From: an uncultured Elusimicrobia bacterium | GTDB lineage: Bacteria; Elusimicrobiota; Elusimicrobia; 2-01-FULL-59-12 | DNA length: 64,000 nt | Assembly: GCA_963702895.1 (NCBI GenBank) | Contig: OY969767.1 | Coordinates: 1,376,001 to 1,440,000, forward strand | Direction: 5' to 3' | In this document: positions 29,001 through 55,104 of the stretch, one piece after another | Position numbering within the stretch: the first letter of the stretch is position 1 | Layout of the letters: each line of letters starts with the position of its first letter | The notes under the pieces: model-generated | Database searches by the model: none | What the model was told of the DNA's origin: nothing | The model's input: the letters and a program-made list of their open reading frames with translations, nothing else | Position numbers and translations under genes: made by a program

Positions 29001-32000
29001 CAACACGAAACTCAAGACCCGGATTCCGAAATCGCCGTTGAGGAGAAGCCTCTCGTCATCATGGCCGAAGATGACCGCCTGCGCCGGCCGCGTATCTTTG
29101 ACGAGATCACAAAATTCCTTGGTGATGCCTATGCTTATCGCGTCTGCAACGATGGGCTTGAAGCGTGGAAAGTCATTGAGGACGCTATAGCATCCGGCCG
29201 CCCCATTGCCCTTCTCGTCACCGACATCTCCATGCCCGGAATTTCGGGATCGGAATTGACGGCACGTCTGCTCGCGTTGCACCCATATGTCCCCATCATC
29301 ATTCATACCACCGAAGCTATGGACGACCTCAGACAAGCGTTCATGGACCCCCGCGTTCGAATCGTTGCCAAAGAAAATTACGCTGGCCTTCGAAGCGATA
29401 TTGCGGAACTTCTGAAGTTGCCCCCCAACGCCGCGGTCGGTAGCGCGGATTCAGCTCCGATGCCGCAGGATGACCCATCACCCGCCAAAAAGACAACTGA
29501 ACCGGCCGCGGGGACTCCTGCAACTCCTGAGCCATCGTCCACAGAACCACAAGCATGGTTGTCGTCGTTCCACGACCAAACCGAAGTCTGGGTGTTCTTC
29601 TTGATCGGCGCCTCCCTGCTCGCGGCCCAAGGTCACATCTTCCCGGTGACCGCGGACTCCGAGACGATGCCTGTGGGTCTTCCCGTGTTTCTTGGATTGG
29701 GGCCCCCTTACAATTTCATTGTCGGTGCTTTTGATCGGGCCCTCCGCCGGATTTTTCCACCTCTGTTTTCGGGACCGGCTGAAGCGTTCACAAATCTGAC
29801 GCCGGAATGGTTTCGAGCGTCCTACAGCGCTTGGCTGCAAACTAAGCGAGGCCGTGCGCTCACGACGGAGGAAGAAACTGAAATTGATCGGTTTGCGCGA
29901 CTCTTGGCTCCCCCGCTGAATCCCATACGCGCAGAAAAACCGACCTGGAAGGACGAATGGAACTCTGCGTACCGGTACATTTTTTTAGGGCAACCTTTGG
30001 ACCTCAAGTCAAAGCGCGCACCAGCGGAAAACGCGACCTCCCTTGGTGAATTGAACGACGCGCTGAAGATTATCGACGGCTACCCCCGCCTATGTTTAAC
30101 GGCTGCCCCCTTGGCGTTTAAGATCCTTCAGGCGCGGGGCTTTTCCGTTCGAAGGGTGAGACGGACGAGATTCGAGGGGATCGTTGAACACGAGTATGTC
30201 GAAGTCGAAGTGGCGGGGCAGTGGCTCATTGTTGATTTGGTGGCGAGCCAATTCGGCATCTTGCAAACCTGGGGTGTTGTCGCGATCCCGAAAGAAATCG
30301 CGACATCCGAGCCTGCCGTGCAGATCTACACGTACGGGGAAGCGGTCGTAAAGGAACAGGCCTTGCTGCCATCCAACCCTGAGACCCCAGGTGTTAGCGA
30401 TAGCCGCGATCTCATCGGACTTGACGCGGTACGGTTTGTTCTATCGAATCAGATGGGACGGAGACTCCCCGAGACCACCATTCAAGAATTGACCAGCTAC
30501 ATCGAAGACTTCTTAAGGGCGCATCAGCTGGAATGGTTGCTGGACCGTGCCAGCATCACGGAGACACGACAGGGGGTGCGGGACAGCACCTCGGAGCTCC
30601 ATGCAGGGCACCAAAACCAAAACAGCCTCGACTGGGTCGAACCCGCGCTGGCTGCGCGCGGCGCCTCCAGGGACACGATCTACCAGCTCAGGTACACTCT
30701 GCCTGGACGATCTCCTCGTAACACTCACGCCGTTTATGAAGCGGTGTCTGCTCTCCTGTTGACGCTCGTGCCGGATGACGTGCCAGTCTATCGCTGGATC
30801 GAGCCCGCCCATGCTGGCCTCCCGGGCGGCGACAGCATGCGAAGCTATTGGGCCGTTGCAACGGCCCAAAACAACAAAGACTTTGCCCATTCAGGCCGTA
30901 TCCTTCTTAAAAGCTATTTTGGACGCCTCAGGCAGACAGGCGTCTTGGTTGACGATACGGGCGTTGACTTCCCAGCCATCTCTCTGATCCATGATCGAAG
31001 AAACGGCCTTGTTTCGCATGAGGTTGTAACTCCTCAACTCGTGCAACCTGGTCCCACCGCATCCACGCTTTCCTCTGCTTTCTCAATACTGGCGGTCTGG
31101 TTGCCCATCCTGATCGGCGCCTCCCTGCTCGCGGTCCAGATGGCATCCGGCCAGTTCTTCCCGGGAGCCGCACAACCAGAAGCCCTGCAGGCGGGCGGCG
31201 CGGCCATGGGGCTGGGCTGGCTCTTCTTGCGTTTGATGGATCTGGTCTCTGCGCCTGAAGGACGCCACGTGGATCCAAGCCCGTCCAGGACGGCGAAAAC
31301 CCAGGCGGCCGATCTGGGAATAGTCTTCAAGCCCCATCTGCTTGAACAATTGCGATATGCGCTCCAAGGCCCCCGTATCGAAGTTTTGAAACGGTTGTTG
31401 GAGTGGGCGGAAGGGTCCGAACTGCGAGGATTGTATCTTCGCACTACCCTGATGCAGCTTGTCGAGGACAATCCCTCATTCGGGGATCGCTTTCATCAAA
31501 AAACGCTTGCCTTGTTCCGGGAGCTGCGCTCGACACCGACACGTTCGACGGTGCAGTACCTGGCATCCCTATTCACGAAAGACAGTACCGCAGGGGTATG
31601 GCTAAAAAACAACCGGATATTCTTGTGGGACGCCACTCACACCTTCGAAGGTCGAATCAATGTGCGGTATTCCCTAAGCTCCGGCCAACGTCAAGCCTTG
31701 GTCGGCGATCTTCTTGTCCCGGAGTCCGGCTCCACCTTCCTGCTGGAATCGGTCCGGGAGGTCTTGAACGACAACCGTATTGGCGATGACGATTTGAACT
31801 ATCCGCTGCAGGTAACAATGATTCAGGAAGGGCTTCGTCAAAAGGTTTACGCCGTGTTCGTCGAATTGAAGGACGGCCGAATGGCGCCGTTTGTCATATC
31901 GGTGCCCCAGAGCGTGAAGCAGAACAACATGGTCAGGAAGGAATTCGAATACTTGCGCCTCCACATAGGTGATCCGCATGCTTTGAGCGTCCTTCGATTA

Positions 32001-32972
32001 GGGTCTGTCAAGCTGGGCGGCACTAAATTCTATGTTTACAGCAGTCTTTTTCTTGACCGATATTCCGAAGTGGTCTACCACCACCGGAGGGCTGGTCTCT
32101 TTCAAAGTAGCCCGGGAGCGTTTCTAGCAACATCCTCGCAGCCACCCCAAACGGTGAGGCTGACCCCCTACGACGCAGCGCGAGTTCTTTCCAAAATTGT
32201 CGCCGTCCTGGTTCATTTTTATGATCCGGAAAAACGCACCATGCTGGGCGGAGTTGATGTGCCTGCCGGAGATTTCAACTTCCCGGATTCCGCGTTCCTG
32301 GATTTCGAGCCGCGAACAGCCACCGTCATTGACACAGACCAACCGGTGAAACTGATCGCCTGGCGGTCCATCGCCCATGGGGTCGACCCAGCAGCATTTA
32401 TTGATTACGTCCTGAGCCTGCGCTATTTGAATTCCAATCCCAGGCTCATTGATTTTGACAGCAACCTCAAAATCGGTGTCCTTGCAGGATTGCGAAGCGG
32501 GCTGATTGCGCGGTACGGATACGAGGAAGGCCAGCGAATACTAACACGCTGGTTCCAGGCGTATGCTGATGCCGTTGATCAGGACCGGTTTATAGAAAAT
32601 GGATTTTTCCAACTTGATGCGCTGCACGGATTCCTGGAGCAGCTCACGGCTCCCAACTCCGGGAAAGCCGGCCCTCGACCCGAGCCGGCGGTTCGCTCTT
32701 CCCGCGCCGGCAAGCTTATCGGCATCCTCTTGATCGCTGGTGCCGCGGCTGCCGCACGTCACGCTGTCCCGGGAATCATCGACATCGGCGCGGGTTCCGA
32801 TTTGATCGGCCGGATTGCCGGGACAGACCTGTTCGCTGGCTCGGCAGTTACTCAGGCCGGCGGCTTGGGCGTGGCGTTGGGCTTGCTCATGGCTTATGGC
32901 CTGGGCGCGCTGAGCCGCCGCTTGGCAAAGAACCATCCCGCTCGTCAACGGGCCTTGGGGCGGGCGGCATGA
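26028..32972 (+). CDS. Giant multidomain membrane protein 1 (~2310 aa)
   Basis: Uninterrupted ORF; AAGGAG upstream of ATG 26028. Clear motifs: ICMT/PEMT-like methyltransferase (VRHPIY...EE..L..RFG..Y..Y) and receiver domain (AEDD, TDISMPG). Tentative: Cys-His-Asp transglutaminase-like, ART-like and kinase-like regions. Confidence 0.85.
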   Translation: MIPFIFQRFVALLLVPSLLVDPLTAAALSNESPRPVDLAAARGVNFLNQALMERLTGAEFHPAASPKHISVVKDLIQRLREAAKGKVQGGSSTDHPSSGKVGHGDTAGSVNGNGMSRRDLLKQSALALMVQNLPAAAQAALEAVPMKRRTAFIQFLSAFQQTLEALPREVRDYHQDPDLQMGAGKFGELADAIRSLRAQGASSGFSSGALGDLQDIFKFLQGSVRQQVASPEWQTRFAPETLRMLQLAASSPNDFELEYRVGLSCRWLESNGIQVSREAALQSARDAVVTGQEPLGDYLQKWLTPLVSERVAPTVAQEAQQLARLGANPIQTADAFAVEFIREFQKHPGNAFWPNPDKFQKYVHGQARLKALDAFRSSVSELGTTLAKAGVRIDGGFVSAYSNDDWGFNKWMKDPAAYIQEIRRITWTSHVRGMMLQRLEEKRSRYNHVAYQRLRDSIFDIQDEGLDLDADPDTLFHQLESAMDAEGINRLPAIPANRVPPPMSQVKAPGGVPADLDSLVKDIAERATATDVEVRVFMDAKGAVRFFDIRPLDPNVRGLLRTLRGADLPFLKKRNGRPGWRYGMRISKGTPASKIKSRLLSGLDSGLWLDFYTAPQHDGSRLLPAQEPQASEPLLAPRMSIFSGPEWFERWGAPLESVMVGALASGIPALLLLLVGVDSSAPTVLNEAVLLPAMALLILTLGQWLAVDLYSGRHPLDRREAWDRLIRNGTWLRTPPQKVHGWATRIALGAGAAALLLQATPVLPLSLASYLAVVAGTYTLTHLAVHFHHNLTHDSDLRMSLRPAVRPPLNIPIMESLRERWKSILIAALSPLPFYLIPRIIQRLMKWPFPSDLEFMITLLFGFAIGMAGMIIYETAAHTLKSQRGAGTEPSGPLVTQGLYQWVRHPIYMGYFLAYGGILSMFSSLITTVPLFVVLPSVVYYCVDKAGAEETHLHARFGDLYRDYARRTPSFFPFRLPRLRLMSATAPAVDGQHETQDPDSEIAVEEKPLVIMAEDDRLRRPRIFDEITKFLGDAYAYRVCNDGLEAWKVIEDAIASGRPIALLVTDISMPGISGSELTARLLALHPYVPIIIHTTEAMDDLRQAFMDPRVRIVAKENYAGLRSDIAELLKLPPNAAVGSADSAPMPQDDPSPAKKTTEPAAGTPATPEPSSTEPQAWLSSFHDQTEVWVFFLIGASLLAAQGHIFPVTADSETMPVGLPVFLGLGPPYNFIVGAFDRALRRIFPPLFSGPAEAFTNLTPEWFRASYSAWLQTKRGRALTTEEETEIDRFARLLAPPLNPIRAEKPTWKDEWNSAYRYIFLGQPLDLKSKRAPAENATSLGELNDALKIIDGYPRLCLTAAPLAFKILQARGFSVRRVRRTRFEGIVEHEYVEVEVAGQWLIVDLVASQFGILQTWGVVAIPKEIATSEPAVQIYTYGEAVVKEQALLPSNPETPGVSDSRDLIGLDAVRFVLSNQMGRRLPETTIQELTSYIEDFLRAHQLEWLLDRASITETRQGVRDSTSELHAGHQNQNSLDWVEPALAARGASRDTIYQLRYTLPGRSPRNTHAVYEAVSALLLTLVPDDVPVYRWIEPAHAGLPGGDSMRSYWAVATAQNNKDFAHSGRILLKSYFGRLRQTGVLVDDTGVDFPAISLIHDRRNGLVSHEVVTPQLVQPGPTASTLSSAFSILAVWLPILIGASLLAVQMASGQFFPGAAQPEALQAGGAAMGLGWLFLRLMDLVSAPEGRHVDPSPSRTAKTQAADLGIVFKPHLLEQLRYALQGPRIEVLKRLLEWAEGSELRGLYLRTTLMQLVEDNPSFGDRFHQKTLALFRELRSTPTRSTVQYLASLFTKDSTAGVWLKNNRIFLWDATHTFEGRINVRYSLSSGQRQALVGDLLVPESGSTFLLESVREVLNDNRIGDDDLNYPLQVTMIQEGLRQKVYAVFVELKDGRMAPFVISVPQSVKQNNMVRKEFEYLRLHIGDPHALSVLRLGSVKLGGTKFYVYSSLFLDRYSEVVYHHRRAGLFQSSPGAFLATSSQPPQTVRLTPYDAARVLSKIVAVLVHFYDPEKRTMLGGVDVPAGDFNFPDSAFLDFEPRTATVIDTDQPVKLIAWRSIAHGVDPAAFIDYVLSLRYLNSNPRLIDFDSNLKIGVLAGLRSGLIARYGYEEGQRILTRWFQAYADAVDQDRFIENGFFQLDALHGFLEQLTAPNSGKAGPRPEPAVRSSRAGKLIGILLIAGAAAAARHAVPGIIDIGAGSDLIGRIAGTDLFAGSAVTQAGGLGVALGLLMAYGLGALSRRLAKNHPARQRALGRAA

Positions 32973-33023
32973 TCCAACTCCTTGCCCGGACCCTTCGCAG
33001 AGATGCAGAAAATCCAGGTTTTT

Positions 33024-36000
33024 ATGCATAGGACCATCCGAAGATCCGCTGCCGTCCTTTTGATTGTCTGCTTGGTGGTCGATCCGGCAACGGCGGCCGC
33101 TTTTTCGAGCAGCCCCCCCCTCTTGCCGCGGCCGTTGGCCAAAAGGTGCCCTCCCATTCCGCGTTTGAAACCCAAGCCCTGACTTTGGTCCTGGCGGCCA
33201 GCATCTTCTTCGGCGCGGCGCTCCATTCTCCCGGGCATCCGCCGGTGGCCAAGACCGTCGCGATGCTTCCGGCGGAAGATCGGACCCGCTCCCTGGGCGC
33301 CAGGCGAAAACGCAGGCCCCGGGGTCCGCGTTCTGCGGACGATGTTGCGAGGGCTCGTCCCCAACGGGTCAGATCAACAGCGGCAGATTTTGTGAGGCAA
33401 CAAGCCGCTGCCGGTCGCCTCGCCGAACTCCCCTATCGTCACAAGCTGATACTGACGGAACGATTCATCAAAGGGACATCTACGAAGAGGTTTGCTGTTC
33501 TTCATGACATGACAGTAACGGCGGTCATAAGCGCAACCAGAACAGCCTTATTGGAATTGCGTCGATTGGTCAAGCCCGCCGCAGTTGAGCCCGCAGGATC
33601 TGGAGATAACGGTCGCGCCGCACCCGCGCCTTCGGTCACGCACGCAGCAGACGCTGGAAACGCTGCCGGAACATCTCTTCCGGCAATTTCTCAGGATCAG
33701 CAATCCATCCTCGTCATATACCCTAACCTGAAACTCCTCCGCATCATGCATCCACCTGTCAAATCTGCATTGGATGATAACGGGCAGGACAGCCTGAGCC
33801 AGTTGACCGTACCTCAAGACCCTGAGCTTTTGGACAAATTGGGCATCGATCCTACAGAGCTTCACATCGTCATTGCCGGATCAACAGTGGATGTGCTGAA
33901 GATCCCCTCCAGCGATTGGTGGGTTTCTCACGACCCTCAAGTAGAGCAAGTCAAATTTCTTTGGATTCTGGTGCGCTCCTTGACCAACGAAAAGGGTTTG
34001 GTCGTGATCTCCCCGTGGAGTGATATCACCGATGCTCGCACGCAACTTCAAGCACTGAAAAAGGCTTATTCCTTGACGGGGCGAATAGAACGCTCCCCGC
34101 AAAATGACTATCCGACGCGCGACAAAGACGTCATCGTACGGCGGCGGGTGCGAGTCCTGGCCGTTGGGCCTGACTCGGACGCACCGTCGGAAACCGCGTT
34201 TCAACTCTTGAGAGTCAACACGAATCCAAAGTTGAAAGAAAAGGCAGATTTGGACTGGAAAGTCATCCAAACCCTCCAGACCTTCCAGGGAGACAGGCTC
34301 TCAGAGTTATGGGATGTGCTGAAGGCTCAAAAGATCCAATGCGATCTGGACAGCTTAAGGGCCAGCTTAAAGCGTATCACGACTCTCACAAATGCTGCAC
34401 CTAATGAGATTCAAAGGAGCAGGGAGTTTGATCGGGGCCCAAAGAGGCAGAGGACCCGCTTGCCCGCACAGAAACCGCTGATCTTTAAATCGGACTTGTC
34501 GGAAGAAGCCCTTGCTGCCTACACCGAAAAGGTTCCGGTTTTCGAGCGTCAGATTACGTACCAAGAGTTTGTGACACAGAACTATGACCCCGATCGCCGC
34601 TTGGAGGAGATTACACGTCAACTTCCTGGGTGGAACTCCCCTGATCGTGTTTCCATCCCGATACTTGTTAACCATCTTCTGAAGAATGCATTTTTCCCGT
34701 TTCCGGACCGGTCCAATGACCGGCAAGCTCACGTGTCCATGGAAATCAGCATGCTTGAGCCGTCGGATCCAGAAGAGCCCAGGGTCGTGAATATCCGCAT
34801 CCGTCAACCTTCGAGCACGCAGGCGGATTGGAATCGGTTGGAAGTCAATCATCGTGGATGGGTGAATCATGATCTCTTTTATTTCGCTCGCCCCGAATTG
34901 CGCGGCGACGAAGGCGCTCTGAGACCCGCTGGTCCTTCAAATCCAGCCGGAACAGGTCATGGGCTTTTGTTAGTCGCCCGGGTCTTGGCTGAGACACCTG
35001 CCTTATTGAAATTCACGCGCAGTTCCGATCCTCCATACTCCTTACAAACCGATCTGTACATCGCGTTAAGGGACCGCGGGACGCCCCGCCCGAACGTCTC
35101 GGCCGGCAGACTGGCGATCTGGCTCCCCTTCCTGCTTGTCGCGGCCGCCGCAGCACAGATCGTGCTAGGCCACTTCTTGCCGGAAGCCGGTCAGCCGGCC
35201 TTGCCTGTCCTGCAGGCCGGCTTCTCGAGCATTCTCGGGCTGGGAGCATTGCTGACAGCGGCCTTTCAGCCGCGATACGCCCCGGAAGGCGGCGGGTCAG
35301 GCTCCGGAGATAGCGCACCGGCCAGCGGTGTTGCCGCAACGGACGTCGTGAGCAAGCTGCAAATATATGGCGTCCCGGTTGAAACGGATTCGCGCGGTAC
35401 TTACGTGTCCCCGTCGCAAATGCCCCAGGCACCCTGGGTGATGGACCGCATGCGGGATCCGGAACAAGGAGCCCTCTATCCCATCCATGATATCCCCTCC
35501 CTGACGCTGAGTTTTCCACTGCATGAGCTCCCGGCACTTTCCAGGGACAGCCTTTCGATAAACTCAAGCGGTGTGTTCCTCGGCTTCGTAAATGAACTGG
35601 ATCATCCTGTGGCCATTAAAGTTTTGAACCGAGATCAGGGAGATACGGAACTCATGAACGCTCAAATCCTTGGCCGGATTGGGGGCAACCCCGCTTTCTA
35701 CGGCGTGATTCGCCTCTCCGACGGAGGGCTGGCCTATGCCATGCAGGCGGTTCGCTGCCTCCCCCTGGCCGAAAGCCTCGATTCGCAAGACAAGCAGTAC
35801 TTGGCTGAACGTGAGCTCCTGAAAAAACGCGCGATGACCCTGGCCGGCATATCGCTGATCGCATTTCGCAGAACACCGGAAGGCCACGCCATCGGCATCG
35901 ACGCGGGGGATGCCGGCGTCGTCGATGCAATAACCTACGGCCGTTACATCGCTGAACGGACCGCGGCCGCCCCCAAACGGAACGTCTGGATGCCGATCCT

Positions 36001-39000: not shown

Positions 39001-40426
39001 CTCCACCCGCAAAGCGAATGTGCGGTCCAGTCTCGTGCGCCATTTCAGCGACGTGCAAATACGAACCCACGCGGGATACGTGCCCTTATCAGATCTTACA
39101 GGCCGGCTCCAGTTCGGCTTCAAGCGCCTTCGACGCTTCCGCGCCATGCAGCCAAAACAGCCAATTGACGAACCATCGGTTGCCACGCCGACATCCGACA
39201 TCAGCCTCAAGACCACCAGCATTTTTGTCGCAGGGATCCTGCAGGCCCCCCTGTGGGGGTATGGTCTGAGCCATATTCTTAGCGGGACTCCGGGTCTTTC
39301 CATGGGACACCTGCTCATTGGCGCAGGGTGGTCTTCGCTTCCCATCGCGACAGCTCTTTTTCTGACTGGCGGCTTTCTGGCGGCCGTGATTCCACTATCC
39401 CCTCCGAATCCTGCGGACAAGGTCCGCCTGTTGGGCTCTCAAGGGAAATGGCCGGGGGATGCGCTCCTTGAGGAGCTGGTCCGACTCGTGCAAAAAAAGC
39501 CGTCTATGAAGCAGCAAGATATTCAGTGGAGGGGTTACCGGATCACCGAGATCCTTTGGCAAATTCTCGATCAGCACCTGGGTTTTGACGGCCACACCAT
39601 TATCTACCCGGCCGGCGGGGCTGATGGATTGCCATCACGCTTTGCGGACACGATTGTGCTCAATCGCGACAGACTGGAGAATCAAGCACGCGAGACTTTC
39701 AGTCTGCCCAAGCCTGGGACACACCGTCTCACCTATCTCACGCTGGACGCGGCCAGTCCTGCCAATTACAACCAAGTCCGCTCCGACATCAAAACCCCGC
39801 AAACAACGTTACTGCTCAAGGGTCTCGAATGGATGCTCCCAACATCGAAGTTCTTTGTTCGGCGTTTGCGCGCGATTTGTAATGTCTTGCAACCGAATCG
39901 GGTGATCATCCTGCGCCGTGAGGATGCCGCTGCCGTGGTGCCTGTTCTTGCCGGCCTGGGCTATCGAGAGCGGACGGATTGGATTGATCGGACGCGCAAG
40001 AGAGTTCTTGAAGCGATCTTTAACTATATGTCCATATCGGTGCTGGATGAGGTTCAAACGCCATCCGGCCCCACGTTCATGATCCCCAATACAATCAGAC
40101 TGTTTGAAAGGAATAAGGGTCAACAGACCATGGCCGATCGAACGCCGCGGCATCGGGCCAATCGAAAGACAATCGCGCTTTTGGCCGCGGCGACACTCGA
40201 CGGCGGGCTCTTGGCCTGGGGCTGGGGCCACGTTCTTGACGGAGCGCAAATGCCGCTCGTCACCCAGGCCGCGTTCCTGGCGATGCCTACGTTCTCGTTG
40301 AGCACCGCCGCAGCGCTCTTCCTGGCCGGCGGCGCGCTTGTGTCGATCATAACGAAACAGACTCGTATATCGAGAGAATTTAACCGCCCATCTCGCACAC
40401 CCAGCCCGTTTCGCCAAGCCGCTTAA
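33024..40426 (+). CDS. Giant multidomain membrane protein 2 (~2470 aa); leader joined through a 1-nt frameshift near 33101-33120
   Basis: Leader MHRTIRRSAAVLLIVCLVVDP lies in a different frame from main ORF 33146-40426. Motifs: sigma-r4-like HTH, HATPase-like (LLKNA...GTGHGL), kinase-like (VAIK...ID), HELG zincin-like, SAM MTase (DWGCGSG), GNAT-like. Confidence 0.82.
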
Positions 40427-40526
40427 ATCACCCCCATCTTCGACTTCTCCGTAGCCGCACAGCCCGCACGAAACGCTTCAACAGGAAAAGATATAATCTT
40501 ACTGATGCGACTTTTTGGAGGTGTCT

Positions 40527-40742: not shown

Positions 40743-40751
40743 GGACGAACC

Positions 40752-41111
40752 ATGCGGTTTCTGGCTGATATGTGCGTCTCCCTGGAAGTCGTCGAGTGGC
40801 TCCGACAGCAACAGCATGACACCAAGCATCTCCGAGAGGAAAACCTTCACAGGCTGCCGAATGGAGACATCTTCAAGAAGGCGGCCGCAGAAAATAGGAT
40901 CCTCCTCACCTTTGATTTGGACTTCGGAGAAATCGTAGCGCTGGCGAAAGGAAACCAAACGGGCGTTATTTTGTTCAGGCTCTACGACACGCGGCCCGTG
41001 CATGTGATCGAACGCCTAAAGGTCCTCCTAGCTGATGCTCCTCCCGCCCTCAACAACAGCATCATTACTGTTGAAGAAACCCGCTACCGAATCCGCCATT
41101 TCCCCACTTGA
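40752..41111 (+). CDS. DUF5615 PIN-like putative toxin
   Basis: MRFLADMCV...RILLTFDLDFGE...GVILFRL. Confidence 0.9.
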   Translation: MRFLADMCVSLEVVEWLRQQQHDTKHLREENLHRLPNGDIFKKAAAENRILLTFDLDFGEIVALAKGNQTGVILFRLYDTRPVHVIERLKVLLADAPPALNNSIITVEETRYRIRHFPT

Positions 41112-44300: not shown

Positions 44301-47300
44301 AAAGGGAAGTAAAGCCGGAACCTTGCCATTTGAACTTTATCCCGGTGCCGATGCAGGGGCTCGGAAGCCTGCATCCCCTCGCCCGGCCCGGCCGGCCACC
44401 CAGCTGCCCGAAGCGGTCCCGGTCTCTGACCCCTCGGTGTCGCTCGACCTCGCCCCGGCTGCCGCGGTTTCCCTGGCACCGGCTGCCGCGACCGCCGTCT
44501 CGCCGCCTAGCCCTATCGCCGATTCGCCGCCTCCATCCACCGATGGCTCGCCGACCCGCCGGCCCGCCGACCCGCCGACTCGCCGCGTCGCCGCATTGGA
44601 CGTCGACCCCGCCGCGCCGGCGACAAGCCCGTTCCGGCCGTGGCGGTGGATCGCCGCCGGCATCGCAGTCGCCGCGGTCGTTGCCGCCCTGCATTTCGGC
44701 CCGACAACGTTCAGACAATTCCGGGACGGGTCTTCAACGCCGCGCCCGTCGTCGTCCGCGAGTCAGGACTACGTCTATGAGCCCGGGCCGGCGTCCGAAA
44801 CCACACACGACCGCGTCCGTACCATGATGGGACCGTACTACGGCATGGATCTTCAGGGACATCGGGCGGAATCCGGAGAACCCCGGGCCGATGCGGGAGC
44901 TCCCTCGCAGCCCCCCGCGCTGAACCCATTGGAGAACATTGCAGACATACAGCTGAGCGGTCATGCCGCGAATGAAATGCTGATGATGGCATTCGCGAAC
45001 ACGATGGAAGACGGCGGCGTTTTATCCCACGCGGGACGAATTGACTTCGTGCCCTCGGATAAACTCACGAAAGAACGCACCAAAGTCACGCTGATTTTGC
45101 CCGCATTGCGCCAGGGCCAGGCGATGCGCATGCCCATTCCCCTCAACCGCCGGGTCGATCCCCTGAGCATCTCGGACCCACGCCTCTGGGTTGACGCCCA
45201 GGGCTGGCTCACGGCCCGGGAGGATACCCCCCCGCTCACCGTGACCTTTGATTGGATCACGACCTTGGAAAACGGCTCCTTCCGGGCGAACTTCCCCGTG
45301 ACACCCTGGATGGAGCGGGAATTCCAAGATATTCCGCCGGAGGTTCGAAGGGACCTTGACCGCGCTCTAGGGCTCGATGAACATGGACGCGCGAGCGTCC
45401 TGGCCGGCGTGGTTGAGAAATACCTCGGCTACAACCAGCAACAGAGAGTTCAACTTCGTCGGGGGACGTGGAATCGTTTCATTGGAGAAGTTCTTGAGAC
45501 GGAAGGGCGGTTTAAGGGCGATTGCGACGTCTTGGCCACCGTCGGTTGGATCTGGGCCAGGTATCTTGGACTTGATGCTGTCATGGCAGCCGGCCGGAAC
45601 AACAGGGGCGGGGGCTCACGGTCCGGAACGAACATGTCCCACGCCGTCATGGTCATCCGGATCGGCGGCAAGTGGCTCGAATTCGACCCTTCCAAATGGG
45701 CGCCGCCCGTCGCCAGTGAAAGTCTTGCGCCTGACCAGCCCTCCGCCGACGGGAAACGGCTGGATGCCGGTCCCATGCCGACACCGCTCAAGCCCTCACC
45801 CCAGTTTGTCGCTACCTTTATCCCGAACCCCGAGCTTTTCCCGCCACCTCGAACGGGACCACCCGCCAGTGCAAAGCCTACCGCGGAGCGACCCGTTCCG
45901 CCCGGCGTGGGTCAGGAATCACCGAAGACCGAACCCGGCGCCAAAGTGGGGCCTGCCGAGAAGCCCGCGAGCGCCAAGAAACCCGCGAGCACCGAAACCC
46001 CCGCCAAGCGGCCCAGCACCTACCGCGTTCAGCCCGGCCAGAGTTTCAACGATATCGCGCGCTTGATATTCACGGATGAGAAATATCCCTACCCGGCGGC
46101 CTTGGATCTGATCGTGGACAACATCAACCACACGATCGGCGGCGACCCCGACCGCCTGATGGCAGGAGTCGACCTCATCGTACGGCCTACGAGCGCGTAT
46201 TCTAGTCCTGTAGCAGGGATGGATTGGGAATGGGGCCTCCATCGAAAATATGGACGGGCCTGGTATGAGCGGCGCCATGCCTTGCTGCAGCAGGCGCTGA
46301 CCCGGGAAAGTCAACGCCCGTCACCCTATACTTCGGAATACCAATCGGAACTGCGGGCGCGCGCGGGCGCCCGGTGGCGCTCGATCGAATTCGACATCCT
46401 TGCCATCAACGACATCCTGAATTGGATCGAACAACGCTTCGGGGTCAGATTCCAACGAGTTGACCTTATGCAGGCGATGGCTCAAACCATGGAGCGCAGT
46501 CAAATCATCTTGAAGCTGACGTCAACCGGCCGTTCAAAATCCGGAACGACCGCCGCCCCGAAGCAGACGGCCGACGGGGAATCGGCGAAACGGAGAAGCG
46601 GTGAACCGGCGGACTTGCCTCTGGGCCATTCCACGAAAACAAGTCCGGACGACCGACTCATCGCTCCGAAGAGCATCACTCCCCTCATGGCAGGCCTGCT
46701 CCAGGCTCCGCTGTGGTGGTGGGGGCTGAGCCACCTGCTGGGCGGGCCGCAGACACCGCTCCTGACCCAGGCCGCCTTCCTGGCCCTTCCGGCCATCCCG
46801 CTCGGCGCCGCCCTGGCCCTGTTCGCGGCGGGGGTCGTGGTGGCGGGGATGGCGGTTTTGGGGAGAAAGGTTCTGAAGCAAACCAGACCCGAGCGCATTG
46901 AAATACAACTGACCCCAATGGACAGACCCTATCAATTGGATCTCGTCAAGTCAGGTGGCAGCCATTCCCGGGGAGATTTGATTCGTCTCGATTTGGAGGA
47001 AATGCGGCTCGAAGCGCACAAGACCGGCGTACCCGGCCGTATGGCTGTTCGTCGAGTCTACCTCGAAGAGCTTGGACACGCTGTTGACGCGCGCCGCTTC
47101 GTCAGAGAAGGGCGGCCTCTTAGCGGCTTTGTAAGACCCAACTCACCTTTACAGACGTATTGGGACCACCACAATCCCAAAGACCCTGAGCATGACATGA
47201 AGGAGCTAGTGGCGGGTCTCAGGCACATCCTGTTTGCGCAAACCCCCTTTGAGGCGGAAAGAGCCCTCATAAAATTATCGCAGGTAGCCAATGATCCGAC

Positions 47301-50300
47301 CGACAGCCACTATTGGGGCGGACGCTTCGCCCTTGAGAGGATTCTCCAACGCATCGACGCAGGGCGAGGCGAGAGGGTGGATGATCTGACAAACTATTTG
47401 CCACGCCTCATCTATGGGTCAGGGGCGTTCCCGGACCTGCCTACGCTGCGTTTACTGGCGAAAGAATTATGTATCGAAAACCTGCGGGACTATCCGCCTG
47501 ACGGAGACGGTCTCCCTGCGCTGAGCGCGGATGGGTCCCGGATCGACGTTCCGGATGAGACCCAACAAGCTTTGGCAACGGTGTGGCGCGCATTCGAGAC
47601 TTACACGGGAAAATCATTGGCCGATGACGCGGTCCCCACGCCGGAACATGTCCGACATTCACAAGCGGCGAGGAGCGGGCTGCCTGGGTTTGACCGAACG
47701 GGCCATTCTATTCATGACCCTGGTCTTGCGCAAGGGAGAAAGATGGTTGGTATGGTCATCGCCGGCCTGCTCCAGGCTCCGCTGTGGTGGTGGGGGCTGA
47801 GCCACCTGCTGGGCGGGCCGCAGACACCGCTCCTGACCCAGGCCGCGTTCCTGACGATGCCGGCCATCCCGCTCGGCGACGCCCTGATCAGCTTCGCCGT
47901 GGGCGCGGCGTGGATCGTGGTGGCGGGGATGGCGGTTTTCGGGTCAGGGGCGCCCGCTCCGGGGCAGGAAGGGGTTTCCGGTCCTGTCTCGCCGGGACCG
48001 TCTTCCAATACCGCGGCCGCCGTCCGGAGGTCCTTCGAAGCGCAGGCTCGAGTACTGGCCGGTATCCCCACCGTGACCGAATTTGAAGCTAATTTCCCAG
48101 GCACGATACGTCGCGTCGATCTTGGACCAGGCTATTCGAATTCGTTACGAGCCGGAGAAGTTCCTAAGATCGATTTCACGCGTCGAATACAGGGAAGAGT
48201 CTACCAGCCACCACCGGCGTCGGAAAACGATTGGCCGAAATGGCTGGACCTGTACGTCGAAAAAGACGCCCAGGCGCTTGTCGTGAGGCTGATGAGAGCG
48301 GGCTTTCGCCCCGATTATTCCAACGCTTACGGAGATGGCCTGAAAGGAGTGTGGTGGACCCGAACCAGCCACCATACTGACACCGTCGGTTCCAACGCAA
48401 CAAATACGTTCTTTACTCCATTGACAGAGGAGGATTATCTCGCGCCGGACCAAGGCGAACATCCGGGCGAGACTCCTAACGACCCAGGAGCGCCTGTTAC
48501 ACCAACAGAACCTCCCTTGAATTGGATCGAAAAGAATGACGCAGCCCTCGAGCAACTGAGTCCCATCGACCGTCAGCTTGTCGATGCCATTCTCCAAGGC
48601 GCCTTACACGGCGATGCTGAACTGCTTGCCCAGTACCCAGAAAAAGTTTATATCGATCCTATTGAAGTTGGACGCTCGGATGAAGGCCGAACAATCTTTC
48701 TCAAGCTTGAAACGAGCATCCTAGTAGAAGGCCGCTACCTCACACACCTGCGATTCAAAGGCGCTCGCCCCCATAAAGGGCGCTACGGGCAGGGGAACCA
48801 AGTCGCCTATCTCGGACGTCGGGGCCATGTCGAGCGGCCTGTAACGGTCGATCAGGAAGGGCGATTGACGGTTTTTGCCGGTCAACTTGACCCCATGGGA
48901 GGTATGCGCCGTATCGGGGCTGCCAACGAATACGCTTTGATGCAAAGCGAAAACAGCCAAGGCGCCTATCGCACGGACGTGCCGATCGGCTGGGGCATCT
49001 TCCCTGGATTTGCATTTGAAAACGAACCTCTGGGCTGGGCGATCGCAGGGATGGAAGGGCCCGACGTTCGAATAAACGGGCGTCGTCAGAATCAGCTGAT
49101 CCTCCGGTCGCGCACGAACGACCCTTATGGGATGATTGAACTGTCTCAGGAACAGTCGCAACACCTCGCCAGGCTCATCGGTGAGAGCATCTGCGCTTAT
49201 CATCAAAAAGGCCGTTATCACCGCTACCCCCATTTTGGAAATATCGGCGTGGCCTACGATACTGTCACCCGTTCCATCCGTTCTGTTGTTCTGCGGGATT
49301 TGGAGACCTCCGTCCGGAAAGACAGCCTGAGCGGATCTCCGAAAGAAATTGAGAACCAAATCATTGCTTGGCGTTTCCGGGATGTGATTCGGTTGATCTA
49401 TCAGTTCTCCTTCAGACCACGGCCCAATGACCCGCTCATCGGCGCCCTCTTGCGCGGATACTTCCCGGAAGGGACTCTAAGAAATGATGATCTTCAGGCC
49501 CTGCTTGTGACCATTTGCCGTCCCAACTTTCTCGATGATTACGCATCCTTATTCTACGACGATGAGACGCAAGATCTCTCGAATTTGATCGACACTCTCG
49601 ACATCCAATCTCATCCTAATTATCAGCATCTTTGGAACGCGATCAGACAATCCATGGCGAGCCAGCCCGCCACTCCTGAAGGGAATGACGGTTCGGCGAC
49701 TCAAGAACATCCGGGTCGCATTGATCCGACGGGCTTGCGCCGCGTGCTCCCGGCAATCGCCCTCCTGGCCGCTCTTCCCTGGACCTACGGCTTCACTTCG
49801 ATCAGCGGCTCTCCCGGATCCGGCGCCGCGATCCCGCTCGGCGCCGCCCTGGCCCTGTTCGCGGCGGGGATCGCGGTCCTGATCTCAGGGAATTCCCCTC
49901 GAAAACGCAAAATACTAACTAAGGCGGCGAGCCATAAGGCAGGAAGGCAAAAGCCGGTGAGTGGCGATGCACCGGGTCCTTCGCGTCACGTTTACCCTGA
50001 CCCCGTCGTCATGGAGAAAAGTCGTTACGATCTTCCAAAGAGTTTGAAGTCCTGGTCTTGGCTCGCTCGCAACAAGGACCAACGTCAATGGCTGCGGGAC
50101 GTATTCCTGCCGAGACTCTTGGCGACTCAAAACCTCCGCGCTCCAGGACAAATCAAGGTCGTAGACCTTGGCGTAAGCACCGGAGAAGTCCTCGCCCGAA
50201 CTTACTATGAGATTTTCCAGCATCTCATAGAAAACACCTTGAAGGGAACATGGAAGGCCAGGATGGTAGGTGTTGATAGGGATGCGACCGTGCTGGCGGA

Positions 50301-51876
50301 AGCCCGTCTTCGGATAAGCGGCAAGCACCCTTTCAATGATATCTCGATCTCTGGCCCTACCATTGAAAAACCAACCCCCTACTCGGCGGCCGTGGTGGAT
50401 TTCTTAAACAGCGACCCGGCGGCCTTTCAATCCAGCGTGCAGCTGGAGCAGCTCGACATCACCGACCATGATTCGCTGGACCCCGTTTTAGACGGTGTCG
50501 ACCTGATCATGGTCAACCACGTCATGGAATATTTGCACCCGGCGGACGTAAAGCCCTTCTTGCAACACCTGTACCAGAAGGCCCCGCAAGCCTGGTTGGC
50601 CATGGAAAATGAATACAGTACTCCCGCCGAAGCTCACCACCGCCAATGGATACCTTATCAGCCGACGCATTTGCCGGGCTTTCGCCCAACGGATTCAGGA
50701 AGCAGCTCACTTCCCGGCGAGAACACACCCCGGTCAGCGGCTGTGGTCGGCATCTTCGCCAGCTGGCTCGCGCTCAGTCAGGCCGCATCCTCCGCTCACC
50801 TCCCCAGTAGGTTGGAATCCCTGCTTTCATTCTTCTATTCGATATCGCCGCTCTTTCCCTGGCTCATGCTCGCCGCGACAGCGGTCTGGCTGGCGGGCAC
50901 CTTTGTCGCGCTGAGAACTCTTTGGAGGCACCCCTCTCGGGTGCCGAGCATAAGACAGGGCGGTACGGCTTCGCCCAGCCCGGCCAGAGCGCTCACTTTT
51001 CGGTACTATTCCGAACTGACCCCCGGACAAAAAGCTGATGTAACGCTAGCTTCATTAATCAGAAGGTTAGGAGCAAGACGTGAGGTGCACGTCTACGATA
51101 CGAAACCATTGGGCAGCCGGTGGGGCCAATTGCCGATCCTCACCCGGTGGAGCCTGCGCCGTTTCACGCGTAACCTGACCCCTGATCCGACAACACTCAG
51201 ACTCGATGCTCTCGTCGCCTATCGTGGAGACATTCCCATGGGTGTTTACGCGTTCATCGATCTCGGTCCAGATCGTCAAATTGTTATGGACAACGGCATC
51301 TACATGGACGCCGACCAGAGGCAGAACGGATACGGTGGAAAACTCACGAAGGAACTCCTCAGCAGGCTGGCAGAGCGCGGGTACAGAATGTTCGTTTTGG
51401 GACCGCCTTTGGGAACGGCTGAAGCGGAGGGGCTCCGTCGGTGGCTGAGCGCTGCCCCAGGCGTTGAAACGCGGGGCAGAACAACCATCGTCCATCTCGC
51501 TAACTACCGAACAAACACCGCCAATTCCCAAGCCGCCGGCAAACCCAAAGGCAAAACAAACGATTCCGCCCCGGAAGCGGAGCCCGCTGACGCGCCGCGC
51601 GGCATAAAGCTTCGCAGTTCCGCGCTGGCCGGCGCTCTCGCCAGCGCGATCGCGCTCAGCCAGGCGCCGTTTGCCCCCCAACTGCCGGATTGGCTTTCTC
51701 CCCTCTTCAGCACGGCGAGTTCGCTGGCGCCGCTCGTTCCCTGGGTGGGGATGGCCGCCGTGATCGGTTGGCTTTTACGGCCAGCTCTGACTCGCATGCT
51801 GTTGAAGGCCCTTCCCCGCCTGCGCGGCAGTCGTTCATCCCGAGCCATCCATCATCACCTTCGAGCCGCGGCCTGA
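41356..51876 (+). CDS. Giant multidomain membrane protein 3 (3506 aa)
   Basis: Uninterrupted ORF. NagB-like domain (PTGSTP, TFNMDEY, GHVAFNE, ALTMG), SAM MTase (LELGAGLG), transglutaminase (GDCD...HA...W..FDP), LysM (YRVQPGQSF..IA), zincin-like (EELGH), kinase-like (HRYPHFGN...D), CheR-like (DLGVSTGE), GNAT. Confidence 0.88.
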   Translation: MPKSLIRIVALILVPCMLLDPSSAFAELARPAAWRAPFPAGVSLASPQATHAALRLDSFPFGIQALVPPSWLSRPISWIQRASELARQASRNRFQVRWTSLAGSPFSFPVLGTDERPIRPVQFSVSQNEIGGGQDGTGQIVTTPSGSRFQVFDTPQTMAAAQAGEIAEIIHANDAAGRITILILPTGSTPIPVYHELVRLYQARQLSFRNVHTFNMDEYYPGPQAPCAWAQHPQSYRRFMDELLFSKVDIPRANIHFLNGQAADPAAEAARYEQEFRDLAPNGADLELGGVGSRGHVAFNEAVVHLTDDFLQRLTSKNREALGLSNDFALEVTAGHELAALAMILQGHWNFREGETFVRWLRARIKTTGRITEESLQKLAERLRRQRVTIGWNPDSPDAKDIQDFVNQASARFGFPIELADLRKLDDSQTHLRELALSTVVDNSVHFAEPADIPTQALTMGLGTLRHSQRTRILASTPNKIPPLEQVAAGPVSEQVPVTDVLRHPDTRFLVTQAAIPPTVRTALARTSGLVLNSQPETRNPKAESGTPAARDTKLYTHPIAVMALAWMASSHFYSWDPAGTGLLLLLTIAPLMAWQGRIFRGKSGMNTFRRLDALLRHLRGLSYARCRELLATGLDRFVPPRRKHRQREFPAIALPAAAPGNPFQLRPPTAVELAFPSRYESAVHAKFVGNDPYDDRTRAIVQAHATAAYVDLMREIFKRTGGTLRGVSFLELGAGLGAIVDVLRTRAGVDAQGIEVRREFVQFARDHGVPLIQGTLLEVPLELAGKTFQITFSRQLLDAIETTDRATEGPMPSQVTHEEELRVLATIAALTAPGGWSIHQTYSSNPIPFTDEELTQAGFQIVSMNPRRTMMVLRRLSDPPPSSPVRRPEAAEETIKPEGKKGPSLYTHPIALMALAWMASSHFYGWDPAGILPLLLLLVPLMAWGPGRYRQWMTSLSGRGPRYKAKQWERKLDEDLRRLRGKGSKAGTLPFELYPGADAGARKPASPRPARPATQLPEAVPVSDPSVSLDLAPAAAVSLAPAAATAVSPPSPIADSPPPSTDGSPTRRPADPPTRRVAALDVDPAAPATSPFRPWRWIAAGIAVAAVVAALHFGPTTFRQFRDGSSTPRPSSSASQDYVYEPGPASETTHDRVRTMMGPYYGMDLQGHRAESGEPRADAGAPSQPPALNPLENIADIQLSGHAANEMLMMAFANTMEDGGVLSHAGRIDFVPSDKLTKERTKVTLILPALRQGQAMRMPIPLNRRVDPLSISDPRLWVDAQGWLTAREDTPPLTVTFDWITTLENGSFRANFPVTPWMEREFQDIPPEVRRDLDRALGLDEHGRASVLAGVVEKYLGYNQQQRVQLRRGTWNRFIGEVLETEGRFKGDCDVLATVGWIWARYLGLDAVMAAGRNNRGGGSRSGTNMSHAVMVIRIGGKWLEFDPSKWAPPVASESLAPDQPSADGKRLDAGPMPTPLKPSPQFVATFIPNPELFPPPRTGPPASAKPTAERPVPPGVGQESPKTEPGAKVGPAEKPASAKKPASTETPAKRPSTYRVQPGQSFNDIARLIFTDEKYPYPAALDLIVDNINHTIGGDPDRLMAGVDLIVRPTSAYSSPVAGMDWEWGLHRKYGRAWYERRHALLQQALTRESQRPSPYTSEYQSELRARAGARWRSIEFDILAINDILNWIEQRFGVRFQRVDLMQAMAQTMERSQIILKLTSTGRSKSGTTAAPKQTADGESAKRRSGEPADLPLGHSTKTSPDDRLIAPKSITPLMAGLLQAPLWWWGLSHLLGGPQTPLLTQAAFLALPAIPLGAALALFAAGVVVAGMAVLGRKVLKQTRPERIEIQLTPMDRPYQLDLVKSGGSHSRGDLIRLDLEEMRLEAHKTGVPGRMAVRRVYLEELGHAVDARRFVREGRPLSGFVRPNSPLQTYWDHHNPKDPEHDMKELVAGLRHILFAQTPFEAERALIKLSQVANDPTDSHYWGGRFALERILQRIDAGRGERVDDLTNYLPRLIYGSGAFPDLPTLRLLAKELCIENLRDYPPDGDGLPALSADGSRIDVPDETQQALATVWRAFETYTGKSLADDAVPTPEHVRHSQAARSGLPGFDRTGHSIHDPGLAQGRKMVGMVIAGLLQAPLWWWGLSHLLGGPQTPLLTQAAFLTMPAIPLGDALISFAVGAAWIVVAGMAVFGSGAPAPGQEGVSGPVSPGPSSNTAAAVRRSFEAQARVLAGIPTVTEFEANFPGTIRRVDLGPGYSNSLRAGEVPKIDFTRRIQGRVYQPPPASENDWPKWLDLYVEKDAQALVVRLMRAGFRPDYSNAYGDGLKGVWWTRTSHHTDTVGSNATNTFFTPLTEEDYLAPDQGEHPGETPNDPGAPVTPTEPPLNWIEKNDAALEQLSPIDRQLVDAILQGALHGDAELLAQYPEKVYIDPIEVGRSDEGRTIFLKLETSILVEGRYLTHLRFKGARPHKGRYGQGNQVAYLGRRGHVERPVTVDQEGRLTVFAGQLDPMGGMRRIGAANEYALMQSENSQGAYRTDVPIGWGIFPGFAFENEPLGWAIAGMEGPDVRINGRRQNQLILRSRTNDPYGMIELSQEQSQHLARLIGESICAYHQKGRYHRYPHFGNIGVAYDTVTRSIRSVVLRDLETSVRKDSLSGSPKEIENQIIAWRFRDVIRLIYQFSFRPRPNDPLIGALLRGYFPEGTLRNDDLQALLVTICRPNFLDDYASLFYDDETQDLSNLIDTLDIQSHPNYQHLWNAIRQSMASQPATPEGNDGSATQEHPGRIDPTGLRRVLPAIALLAALPWTYGFTSISGSPGSGAAIPLGAALALFAAGIAVLISGNSPRKRKILTKAASHKAGRQKPVSGDAPGPSRHVYPDPVVMEKSRYDLPKSLKSWSWLARNKDQRQWLRDVFLPRLLATQNLRAPGQIKVVDLGVSTGEVLARTYYEIFQHLIENTLKGTWKARMVGVDRDATVLAEARLRISGKHPFNDISISGPTIEKPTPYSAAVVDFLNSDPAAFQSSVQLEQLDITDHDSLDPVLDGVDLIMVNHVMEYLHPADVKPFLQHLYQKAPQAWLAMENEYSTPAEAHHRQWIPYQPTHLPGFRPTDSGSSSLPGENTPRSAAVVGIFASWLALSQAASSAHLPSRLESLLSFFYSISPLFPWLMLAATAVWLAGTFVALRTLWRHPSRVPSIRQGGTASPSPARALTFRYYSELTPGQKADVTLASLIRRLGARREVHVYDTKPLGSRWGQLPILTRWSLRRFTRNLTPDPTTLRLDALVAYRGDIPMGVYAFIDLGPDRQIVMDNGIYMDADQRQNGYGGKLTKELLSRLAERGYRMFVLGPPLGTAEAEGLRRWLSAAPGVETRGRTTIVHLANYRTNTANSQAAGKPKGKTNDSAPEAEPADAPRGIKLRSSALAGALASAIALSQAPFAPQLPDWLSPLFSTASSLAPLVPWVGMAAVIGWLLRPALTRMLLKALPRLRGSRSSRAIHHHLRAAA

Positions 51877-53361: not shown

Positions 53362-55104
<1,743 letters not shown>

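Follow-up and report, generated by a model that had tools for sequence, protein, structure and literature searches.

The window analyzed here, a 64,000-nucleotide (nt) stretch of DNA from an uncultured Elusimicrobia bacterium (contig OY969767.1, positions 1,376,001 to 1,440,000), carries three giant genes whose proteins interleave unrelated domains with 14 hydrophobic cassettes. These cassettes belong to a previously unnoted, lineage-specific protein family, which is the more interesting result of this analysis. Members of the family combine a signal-type leader, the tripeptide QAL some 30 residues behind it, hairpin-sized hydrophobic clusters, cargo of cytoplasmic type, and a C-terminal AA (Ala-Ala). 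Regarding the role of the cassettes, our judgment tilts slightly toward hairpins that anchor proteins of patchwork construction to the membrane.

Hydrophobic cassettes in three giant proteins

Together, the three giants comprise 8275 amino acids (aa), in which the 14 cassettes, one lone hydrophobic helix, and an ICMT-like block are set among cargo domains. The corresponding open reading frames (ORFs) are listed here in window coordinates, which are used throughout unless stated otherwise.

25941-32972, + strand: giant ORF1, 2343 aa, with the ICMT-like block of multiple transmembrane (TM) segments, a receiver domain, and cassettes A1-A3
33146-40426, + strand: body of giant ORF2, 2426 aa from a GTG codon, with an S-adenosylmethionine (SAM)-methyltransferase domain and cassettes A4, A5, B1, and B2
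41356-51876, + strand: giant ORF3, 3506 aa, with a NagB-like domain and cassettes C1, C2, B3-B5, D1, and D2

The start of ORF1 is probably the leader position, 26028.

A first-pass annotation of this DNA had described 14 hydrophobic cassettes in four families, and both hydropathy peaks and repeated peptide motifs are indeed found within a few bases of the sites it named. Alignments and profile comparison uphold the division into families A (five copies), B (five, one of them partial), C (two), and D (two). The extents given below were set by a simple hydropathy rule, and QA denotes the dipeptide Gln-Ala.

29580-29723, + strand: cassette A1, ORF1 aa 1214-1261, the most divergent A copy, with no QA
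31059-31253, + strand: cassette A2, ORF1 aa 1707-1771
32697-32915, + strand: cassette A3, ORF1 aa 2253-2325, C-terminal, with a basic tail of 18 aa that ends in AA
35096-35272, + strand: cassette A4, ORF2 aa 651-709, with AlphaFold2 (AF2) helices at aa 651-677 and 686-711
35981-36193, + strand: cassette A5, ORF2 aa 946-1016
39200-39406, + strand: cassette B1, ORF2 aa 2019-2087
40169-40357, + strand: cassette B2, ORF2 aa 2342-2404, C-terminal, with a basic tail of 22 aa that ends in AA
43018-43146, + strand: cassette C1, ORF3 aa 555-597
44068-44199, + strand: cassette C2, ORF3 aa 905-948
46675-46875, + strand: cassette B3, ORF3 aa 1774-1840, with AF2 helices at aa 1770-1795, 1801-1810, and 1816-1842
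47740-47958, + strand: cassette B4, ORF3 aa 2129-2201
49729-49896, + strand: cassette B5, ORF3 aa 2792-2847, a partial copy that is without the middle part
50731-50922, + strand: cassette D1, ORF3 aa 3126-3189
51616-51792, + strand: cassette D2, ORF3 aa 3421-3479, C-terminal, with a basic tail of 27 aa that ends in AAA

Mean column identity in the family alignments is 43% for A, 50% for B, 71% for C, and 66% for D. No relation between families was detected when A, B, and the combined C and D profiles were compared (hhalign probabilities below 1%). Judged from these comparisons, the four families appear to follow a common plan with no detectable common ancestry. Cargo units of 300 to 600 aa are bounded by cassettes of 45 to 75 aa, and each of the three ORFs closes with one cassette (A3, B2, or D2). 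Pairwise comparison of 19 cargo segments revealed no significant similarity among them (best E value about 0.02); one stronger match reflects an overlap of the chosen segment limits and is not counted.

The annotation had also described most cassettes as paired helices between spacers rich in Pro, Ser, and Ala, a description that is only partly borne out. AF2 was run on five-row family alignments and gave two low-confidence models, in which type A forms two helices (pLDDT 61) and type B forms a long helix, a 10-residue helix, and a second long helix (pLDDT 57). The spacer composition amounts to a mild trend, since the summed fraction of Pro, Ser, Thr, Ala, and Gly is 0.455 upstream and 0.424 downstream of the cassettes versus 0.371 overall. 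The flanks exceed the 90th percentile of random windows by this measure at two of 14 upstream and three of 14 downstream positions.

Profiles of the four families find matches confined to the three giant genes within the 2.72-Mb genome. The cassette DNA likewise has no copy elsewhere in that genome, which rules out a genome-wide mobile DNA repeat. Type B was sought most widely. Its profile is absent from all 40 relatives searched, and among 1.84 billion representative proteins it recovered only ORF3, ORF2 (P0005), and two tandem-repeat proteins (P0004 and P0006). The latter two were judged spurious because their scores are assembled from many weak stretches (71 in P0004). Whole ORF3 matched itself alone among proteins of 1928 to 6136 aa, and neither ORF1 aa 1200-2343 nor ORF3 aa 545-975 had a match among shorter proteins.

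Among 400 other Elusimicrobiota genomes, the type A profile gave seven weak matches. The best of these lies antisense to a long + strand ORF, by eye a ComM/Mg-chelatase-type ATPase, and was judged spurious; the remaining six have E values of 0.003 to 0.009 per genome, about what chance would yield over 400 genomes. In the same 400 genomes, type C had no match and type D had one, which is weak and contains an internal stop. Cassettes B3 and A2 were not encountered in metagenome scans.

At the DNA level, families A to D trace back to 80- to 190-nt patches that were recently copied locally, or exchanged by gene conversion, within and between the three genes. The clearest case is the C1/C2 pair, which shares 79 nt at 97% identity. 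In this patch, 24 of 27 codons are identical, and the three changes are all nonsynonymous, with no synonymous change. This pattern indicates recent copying or gene conversion rather than old duplicates maintained by selection on the peptide. Cassettes B3 and B4 share 188 nt at 88% identity, of which the first ~90 nt are 93 to 100% identical in 30-nt windows. Shorter patches link B3 with the last helix of B5 (50 nt at 94%) and A1 with A2 (44 nt at 86%). At the patch edges, identity drops to about 0.25 upstream, and it decays downstream over ~100 nt for B3/B4 and within ~60 nt for C1/C2. The distance between copies is 1071 nt for B3/B4 and 1053 nt for C1/C2; as each is divisible by three, the copies are in frame.

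A wider family defined by leader, QAL, and terminal AA

The genome encodes 33 ORFs of at least 1400 aa, which make up 12% of its DNA. A hidden Markov model (HMM) of the leader and the stretch that follows it matches 13 to 14 proteins of this genome, and these are dispersed over the chromosome. In the window, the matches are ORF1 (E value 2.8e-19), ORF3 (1e-14), and an out-of-frame leader belonging to ORF2; the model was built from 11 seeds that include ORF1 and ORF3, so these two match partly by construction. The window leaders lie at 26028, 33025, and 41356, and examples of other family loci (genome coordinates) are C1:750022-788685, 93226-100263, 222921-228947, and 1099294-1107171. The QAL that the annotation had noticed in the leader is a motif of the whole family and recurs at the same distance of about 30 residues.

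33025-33137, + strand: ORF2 leader, in another frame than the ORF2 body, with a C run (about 33113-33121) separating the two; HMM E values 8.1e-7 and 4.8e-6

All three giants end in AA, as do 11 of the 13 own-genome members, with SA at the end of the other two; of ten complete members in relatives, six end in AA and one in SA. The terminal AA usually follows a basic residue (window sites 32964-32969, 40418-40423, and 51868-51873). As a background, 44 of the 1358 ORFs of at least 300 aa end in AA, a figure that also counts the family members and the nine genome copies of an IS256-like transposase gene. A C-terminal AA resembles the end of the ssrA degradation tag.

Of five further genomes from this taxonomic family, four have the N-terminal module, and three of these have at least 14 matches each. 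Across 395 other genomes of the phylum sample, it produced only two weak matches. The cargo of nine other own-genome members comprises HEAT/TPR repeats, HTH_3, histidine phosphatase, sigma-70 region 4 (Sigma70_r4), aldo-keto reductase, Methyltransf_28, HD, DnaJ with WD40, and PfkB with an RmlD-type epimerase. No description of this family was found in the literature on related themes, where the family itself was not the object of the search and subscription journals lay outside it.

Hydrophobic clusters are a general property of the family, and repetition of their sequence is not. Comparison of 86 clusters from 27 family proteins left 71 as singletons and placed the others in six repeated groups. 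Four of these groups are the window families A (two groups), B, and D, and the other two are each confined to a single protein; type C is missing from the groups because it lies below the hydropathy cutoff used there. Other giant ORFs of this genome, with 13,690 aa (C1:31591-72663), 8533 aa (1857619-1883220), and 4695 aa (2251949-2266036), are almost without hydrophobic peaks and represent a different kind from the hairpin-bearing family.

These counts bear on the possibility that the cassettes act as DNA, wherein identical in-frame patches serve as recombination joints that delete, duplicate, or swap modules and the encoded peptide is merely tolerated. The sharp edges of the 93 to 100% identical patches, their spacing in multiples of three, the unrelated cargo between them, and tandem repeats of 7- to 8-nt units in spacers next to cassettes are all consistent with such joints. 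We nevertheless rate this explanation as improbable. Hairpin-sized clusters occur unrepeated across the family, so the peptide feature is independent of DNA repetition, and the cassette DNA is restricted to the giant genes. Furthermore, the DNA was contained at a small share (0.07) in one DNA run (X1, a freshwater sediment metagenome), and no contigs joined across a module were seen in this run, whose coverage is very small (eight short contig pieces, five of which are identical pieces of 151 to 171 nt). No RNA run was listed as containing it. A role as recombination joints may hold in addition to anchoring, yet it leaves the family's unrepeated hairpins unexplained.

Membrane topology, QA, and processing

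Evidence for the orientation of the cassettes comes from their charge pattern. Inside a cassette, the density of Lys plus Arg (K+R) is 0.021, whereas it is 0.148 in the 15 aa preceding the cassette and 0.219 in the 15 aa following it; the overall value is 0.110. At least three such residues fall in the following 15 aa in 11 of the 14 cassettes. Corresponding values before, inside, and after are 0.141, 0.057, and 0.154 for 35 clusters of ten other own-genome members, and 0.143, 0.054, and 0.168 for 21 clusters of 13 members from relatives. The median cluster span in these two sets is 61 to 65 aa.

According to the positive-inside rule, basic residues mark the cytoplasmic flank of a membrane segment. 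A uniformly basic C-terminal flank would thus orient the last helix of every cassette from outside to inside, in which case the first helix would run from inside to outside and the cassette would form a hairpin flanked on either side by cytoplasmic sequence. Such a topology fits cargo that is cofactor dependent, DNA binding, or of chaperone type. In addition, most hairpin sequences are singletons, which is easier to reconcile with generic anchoring than with recognition of a particular site.

In the arrangement that we propose, the first helix would insert from the cytoplasmic side, leaving a short loop without charges outside, and the second helix, rich in Gly and Ala, would return and be stopped by the basic stretch. 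Hairpins located between and after unrelated domains, most of them of cytoplasmic type, would staple each domain to the inner membrane face at both ends. The leader could form a first hairpin with the hydrophobic cluster that follows it ~60 to 220 aa behind in nine of 13 members, leaving the QAL loop outside, and ORF1 could reach the same state via its ICMT-like block. The annotation had offered repeated internal translocation signals as one explanation for the cassettes. This proposal comes close to the hairpin arrangement, as each cassette resembles a signal-anchor helix joined to a stop-transfer helix.

Several observations weigh against anchoring hairpins. The K+R density of the upstream flank is barely above background, and the confidence of the AF2 models is low. 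A Kyte-Doolittle threshold of 1.6 over 19 aa is missed by every type B first helix, by both helices of C1, and by both type D first helices, and with such marginal hydropathy some cassettes could be single-span or interfacial. Polar residues are conserved in the cassettes (by eye, a His after helix 1, a Gln, and a run of Trp in type B), which hints at a role more specific than plain anchoring. Moreover, all three proteins carry a signal-type leader. If this leader exports the segment next to it, then ORF3 would have its NagB-like and methyltransferase domains outside the cytoplasm, barring a further helix that escaped the count. No helix is present between the ORF3 leader and its NagB-like domain, and the hairpin model does not explain this organization.

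The marginal hydropathy raises the possibility that cassettes are topology switches, in which the last strong helix alone spans the membrane, the weaker helix is interfacial, and successive cargo domains alternate between cytoplasm and periplasm. Most cassettes have just one helix that passes the 1.6 threshold. Also, a lone helix stands ahead of ORF3 aa 1118-1776, whose weak transglutaminase-like core and a stretch that by eye looks to be of LysM type would be compatible with a periplasmic location.

44650-44706, + strand: lone hydrophobic helix, ORF3 aa 1099-1117, outside every cassette family

This lone helix may switch the membrane side. As a general account of the cassettes, however, alternation is quite unlikely. 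The basic residues after the last helix in 11 of 14 cassettes imply the same outside-to-inside direction each time, which requires a second crossing per cassette, and cofactor-dependent cargo of cytoplasmic type occurs on both sides of cassettes.

The recurrent QA had been interpreted as a possible protease site. That many cassettes carry this dipeptide is correct, as at least one QA is present in 10 of the 14. The cassettes contain 12 QA in 838 residues, compared with 47 in 7437 residues outside (Fisher p 0.016). Composition predicts 5.05 in the cassettes, a 2.4-fold difference, and a count of 12 is reached in 0.2% of within-cassette shuffles. However, the raw count overstates the case because the copies are paralogues. 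The 12 sites collapse to four aligned columns, and these fall at different places in the hairpin: type A has one, before helix 2; type B has two, within helix 1 and ahead of the second helix; and type D has one, where helix 1 ends. Type C cassettes have no QA, four of the sites precede Pro, and the dipeptide MA is enriched in cassettes more strongly than QA. Outside the cassettes, QA is also above expectation (47 versus 33).

The enrichment does not extend to the wider family. In ten other own-genome members, QA occurs 20 times in 3974 aa inside hydrophobic clusters (observed/expected 1.22) and 157 times in 26,066 aa outside (1.19), and QA is therefore no commoner in the hydrophobic linkers of these proteins than in their background. 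For the wider family, this is the outcome that the annotation itself had named as refuting its proposal. Viewed as a mark of junctions, a Gln followed by a small residue yields 12 observed versus 5 expected occurrences in the window cassettes, from four independent columns, with no enrichment in these ten members. The motif is real, and the paralogy of the cassette copies probably explains it. It looks like an inherited trait, perhaps a helix-start or helix-end motif, rather than a common cleavage signal.

Pfam searches of the three proteins and 18 cargo segments (E values up to 0.5) identified no protease of the 3C/chymotrypsin kind and no other clear processing protease, although a very divergent peptidase could escape because half of the cargo segments match no family. 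The only protease candidate in the giants is the weak transglutaminase-like core of ORF3 (E value 0.002). With no processing protease detected, with QA located within or at the edge of helices, and with a position that varies by family, the assignment of QA as a protease site is unsupported.

Cleavage of another sort might nonetheless apply, wherein the giants are membrane-bound polyproteins from which units of cargo, hairpin, and basic tail are released by cuts in or beside the cassettes. The cuts would be made on the external side of the membrane, at small-Q-A or Q-A-G-G in the window cassettes and at other sites elsewhere in the family, and the family-wide AA would mark finished ends. We regard this scheme as unlikely. 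In its favor, a cassette that belongs to the same families as the internal ones ends all three ORFs, such that cargo plus cassette looks like a unit. Candidate enzymes are signal peptidase I, acting at small-Q-A after helix 1, and a rhomboid acting atop the Gly-rich helix 2. The T-Q-A of type B follows a helix breaker at what we take to be the spacing of a signal peptidase site. Similarly, the Q-A-G-G of type A heads a Gly-rich helix that is followed by basic residues, presumably as in substrates of the rhomboid or GlyGly type. The genome has three rhomboid-family matches, at C1:125624, 1283669, and 1823529 in genome coordinates. The transglutaminase-like core in ORF3 is of Cys-protease type, and cleavage has been proposed for the TM-rich giants of Omnitrophota (bioRxiv 10.1101/2023.11.21.568195).

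The searches for processing machinery point in the other direction. When the 14 cassettes were compared with the NCBIfam sorting-signal models (E values up to 10), only MYXO-CTERM was returned, on A3, with an E value of 7.9 and 7.3 bits versus a cutoff of 15.85. In the genome, which is 98% complete, sortase (PF04203) and exosortase (PF09721) had no matches, and rhombosortase (TIGR03902) reached at best 35.3 bits versus a cutoff of 84, which leaves generic rhomboids only. A hydrophobic helix with a basic cluster is present at the extreme C-terminus, where five (A3), four (B2), and five (D2) K or R residues fall in the 15 aa after the last helix. C-terminal tails of 18 to 27 aa are longer than is usual for sorting signals. 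Pfam searches of the 14 cassettes (E values up to 1) gave only subthreshold matches to TM parts of unrelated membrane proteins.

Other features also argue against cleavage as the common fate of the family. QA is missing from four of the 14 cassettes, is placed before Pro at four sites, and is unenriched in the ten other members, and the family hairpins are too diverse (71 of 86 being singletons) for a single recognition site. We also considered whether internal cassettes mimic the C-terminal AA. By eye, AA occurs within ~22 aa after four of the 11 internal cassettes, which is about the chance level (a rough expectation is one third), and this idea was dropped.

Cargo, genomic setting, and relation to known systems

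Matches to family libraries explain just a small portion of the three giants. With Pfam at E values up to 0.5, nine of 18 cargo segments are without a listed family, and three more have only chance-level rows (E values 0.055 to 0.33). The best match is the NagB-like domain of ORF3 (NCBIfam nagB, 5e-46). ORF3 also has up to three segments resembling SAM-methyltransferases, of which two are supported and one is a weak match of the CheR/Methyltransf_12 type, and the three giants together have up to four, including this weak one. A weak GNAT match (E value 0.002) is likewise located in ORF3. Kinase-fold cargo may be present in two places. ORF2 aa 713-946 (35282-35983) contains, as read by eye, what we take to be a V-A-I-K-type kinase motif. 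For ORF3 aa 2201-2805 (47956-49770), the nearest ESM Atlas clusters are unnamed, and the closest one with a name, in which 35% of members bear SelO, is found at rank 18 with a score of 0.91, which we treat as a lead only.

ORF1 aa 58-686 has low recognition in the ESM Atlas, with a best score of 0.79. Within this region, a Met-initiated internal stretch at aa ~144-172 (26370-26460) resembles a twin-arginine (Tat) signal and includes an A-Q-A site. It falls below all model cutoffs (E values of 0.55 for TAT_signal, 0.016 for hydA, and 0.054 for formate_TAT) and may be the relic of a fused gene.

The cargo bears on whether the giants are effectors exported to act in another cell, inserting their bilobed hydrophobic segments into the membrane of a host or prey in the manner of chlamydial Inc proteins. 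Signal-type leaders, two-lobed hydrophobic units of ~60 aa, the lineage-specific expansion of the family, and cargo with kinase-like, methyltransferase, acetyltransferase, transglutaminase-like, WD40, HEAT/TPR, and J domains are compatible with this role. Even so, we consider it very improbable. The context lends it no support, the only run containing the DNA is labeled as a freshwater sediment metagenome and holds it at small share, and the sigma-70 region 4 and HTH domains of other members do not suggest eukaryotic targets. Inc proteins are not known to be Sec-leader proteins.

The genes for the three giants are located in an insertion. In three relatives, dnaG, rpoD, an aminotransferase gene, luxE, and luxC are contiguous, and in the window ~29 kb separates the aminotransferase gene from rpoD. 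The nearest sequences to its DnaG are from metagenome-assembled genomes of Elusimicrobiota, with 58 to 74% identity, and the three relatives are among these genomes.

24459-53361, no strand assigned: insertion of about 29 kb, absent from three relatives (L010, L011, and L013)

Besides the three giants, the insertion contains an IS256-like transposase gene, a hemerythrin gene, a small ORF, and a small gene pair. The gene pair (40528-41110) consists of two small + strand ORFs between ORF2 and ORF3, whose products look, by eye, like a DUF433-type antitoxin and a PIN-like toxin. The nine genome copies of the transposase gene include the one at 24608-25855; four of the nine lie 86 to 233 bp from a giant gene ending in AA, among them the copy that precedes ORF1. 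No phage or conjugation families were seen among the 25 window ORFs scanned.

Two reading frames in this region are broken. The essential sigma factor gene rpoD is interrupted at 53842-53985 on the - strand, where the slip of a single base in a run of G (about 53975) within conserved region 2 divides it into two ORFs. It is intact in the relatives, which points to indel errors in the assembly. The break between the ORF2 leader and body is probably also a homopolymer assembly error; a phase-variable tract is less likely. Homopolymer errors in the assembly are the simplest explanation for both breaks. Separately, we note that tandem repeats with 7- to 8-nt units are present before C1 (42959-42987), in a Pro-rich stretch before the lone helix (44549-44585), and weakly before B1 (39188-39202). 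One of these repeats is partly matched by unrelated contigs of the freshwater sediment metagenome run.

Uncultured phyla are yielding long bacterial proteins in which soluble domains alternate with membrane segments, and these proteins might work whole or be cut up. The nearest system in print is that of the 'Archaeovorin'-type giants of Omnitrophota, which have mostly unannotated sequence and domains interspersed with numerous TM helices, and for which cleavage is proposed (bioRxiv 10.1101/2023.11.21.568195). The very long, TM-interspersed multidomain ORFs of the window resemble these proteins. They differ in size, at 2.3 to 3.5 thousand aa as opposed to more than 30 thousand in the case described (the preprint studied proteins of more than 10,000 aa), and in having no SecA_DEAD, C39, or S8 Pfam match. 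The cargo described for the Omnitrophota proteins serves attachment or carbohydrate degradation, whereas that of the giants is of cytoplasmic enzyme type. Repeated hairpin cassettes, the leader with QAL, and the C-terminal AA were not met in the portions of the preprint considered here. The window locus offers a small and tractable case of such proteins, with defined units and some near-identical cassettes.

Polyvalent proteins of phages and conjugative elements combine many unrelated enzymatic domains, such as methyltransferases and peptidase-like domains, and release of units by processing has been proposed (Iyer et al. 2017, PMC5512222). The giants likewise carry many unrelated effector-type domains in one polypeptide, methyltransferases among them, and are associated with accessory DNA. 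The membrane hairpins between domains are not part of the polyvalent theme as far as the main text of that article goes, in which the word 'transmembrane' occurs zero times. Moreover, no metallopeptidase processing domain was found in the giants, and no phage or conjugation gene accompanies them among the scanned ORFs.

Smaller membrane units also offer parallels. Chlamydial Inc proteins are small, are delivered by type III secretion, and have one bilobed two-helix unit with both flanks on the same membrane side. The cassettes share the two-helix unit with its short loop, and they differ in that three to seven units occur in each giant Sec-leader protein. C-terminal sorting signals (LPXTG, PEP-CTERM, GlyGly-CTERM, and MYXO-CTERM) resemble the cassettes in combining a motif, a helix, and a basic end, as in the type A Q-A-G-G that precedes a helix. 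The cassettes depart from these signals by an extra first helix, internal copies, and a tail of 18 to 27 aa that ends in AA.

In the replicase polyproteins of positive-strand RNA viruses, enzymes such as methyltransferases alternate with hydrophobic hairpins, and 3C-like proteases cut between Gln and a small residue. Both the alternation of enzymes with hairpins and the recurrence of Gln before a small residue are found in the giants. In contrast, no 3C-like protease was detected, QA lies inside helices rather than at exposed junctions, and the genes reside on a bacterial chromosome. If the hairpins are only anchors, then the family builds membrane-tethered enzyme arrays by gene patchwork. If the proteins are cut, they would constitute a rare bacterial polyprotein system. 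One gene would then supply several enzymes, each with its own anchor, and the system would be the cellular equivalent of the replicase polyproteins that RNA viruses anchor to membranes.

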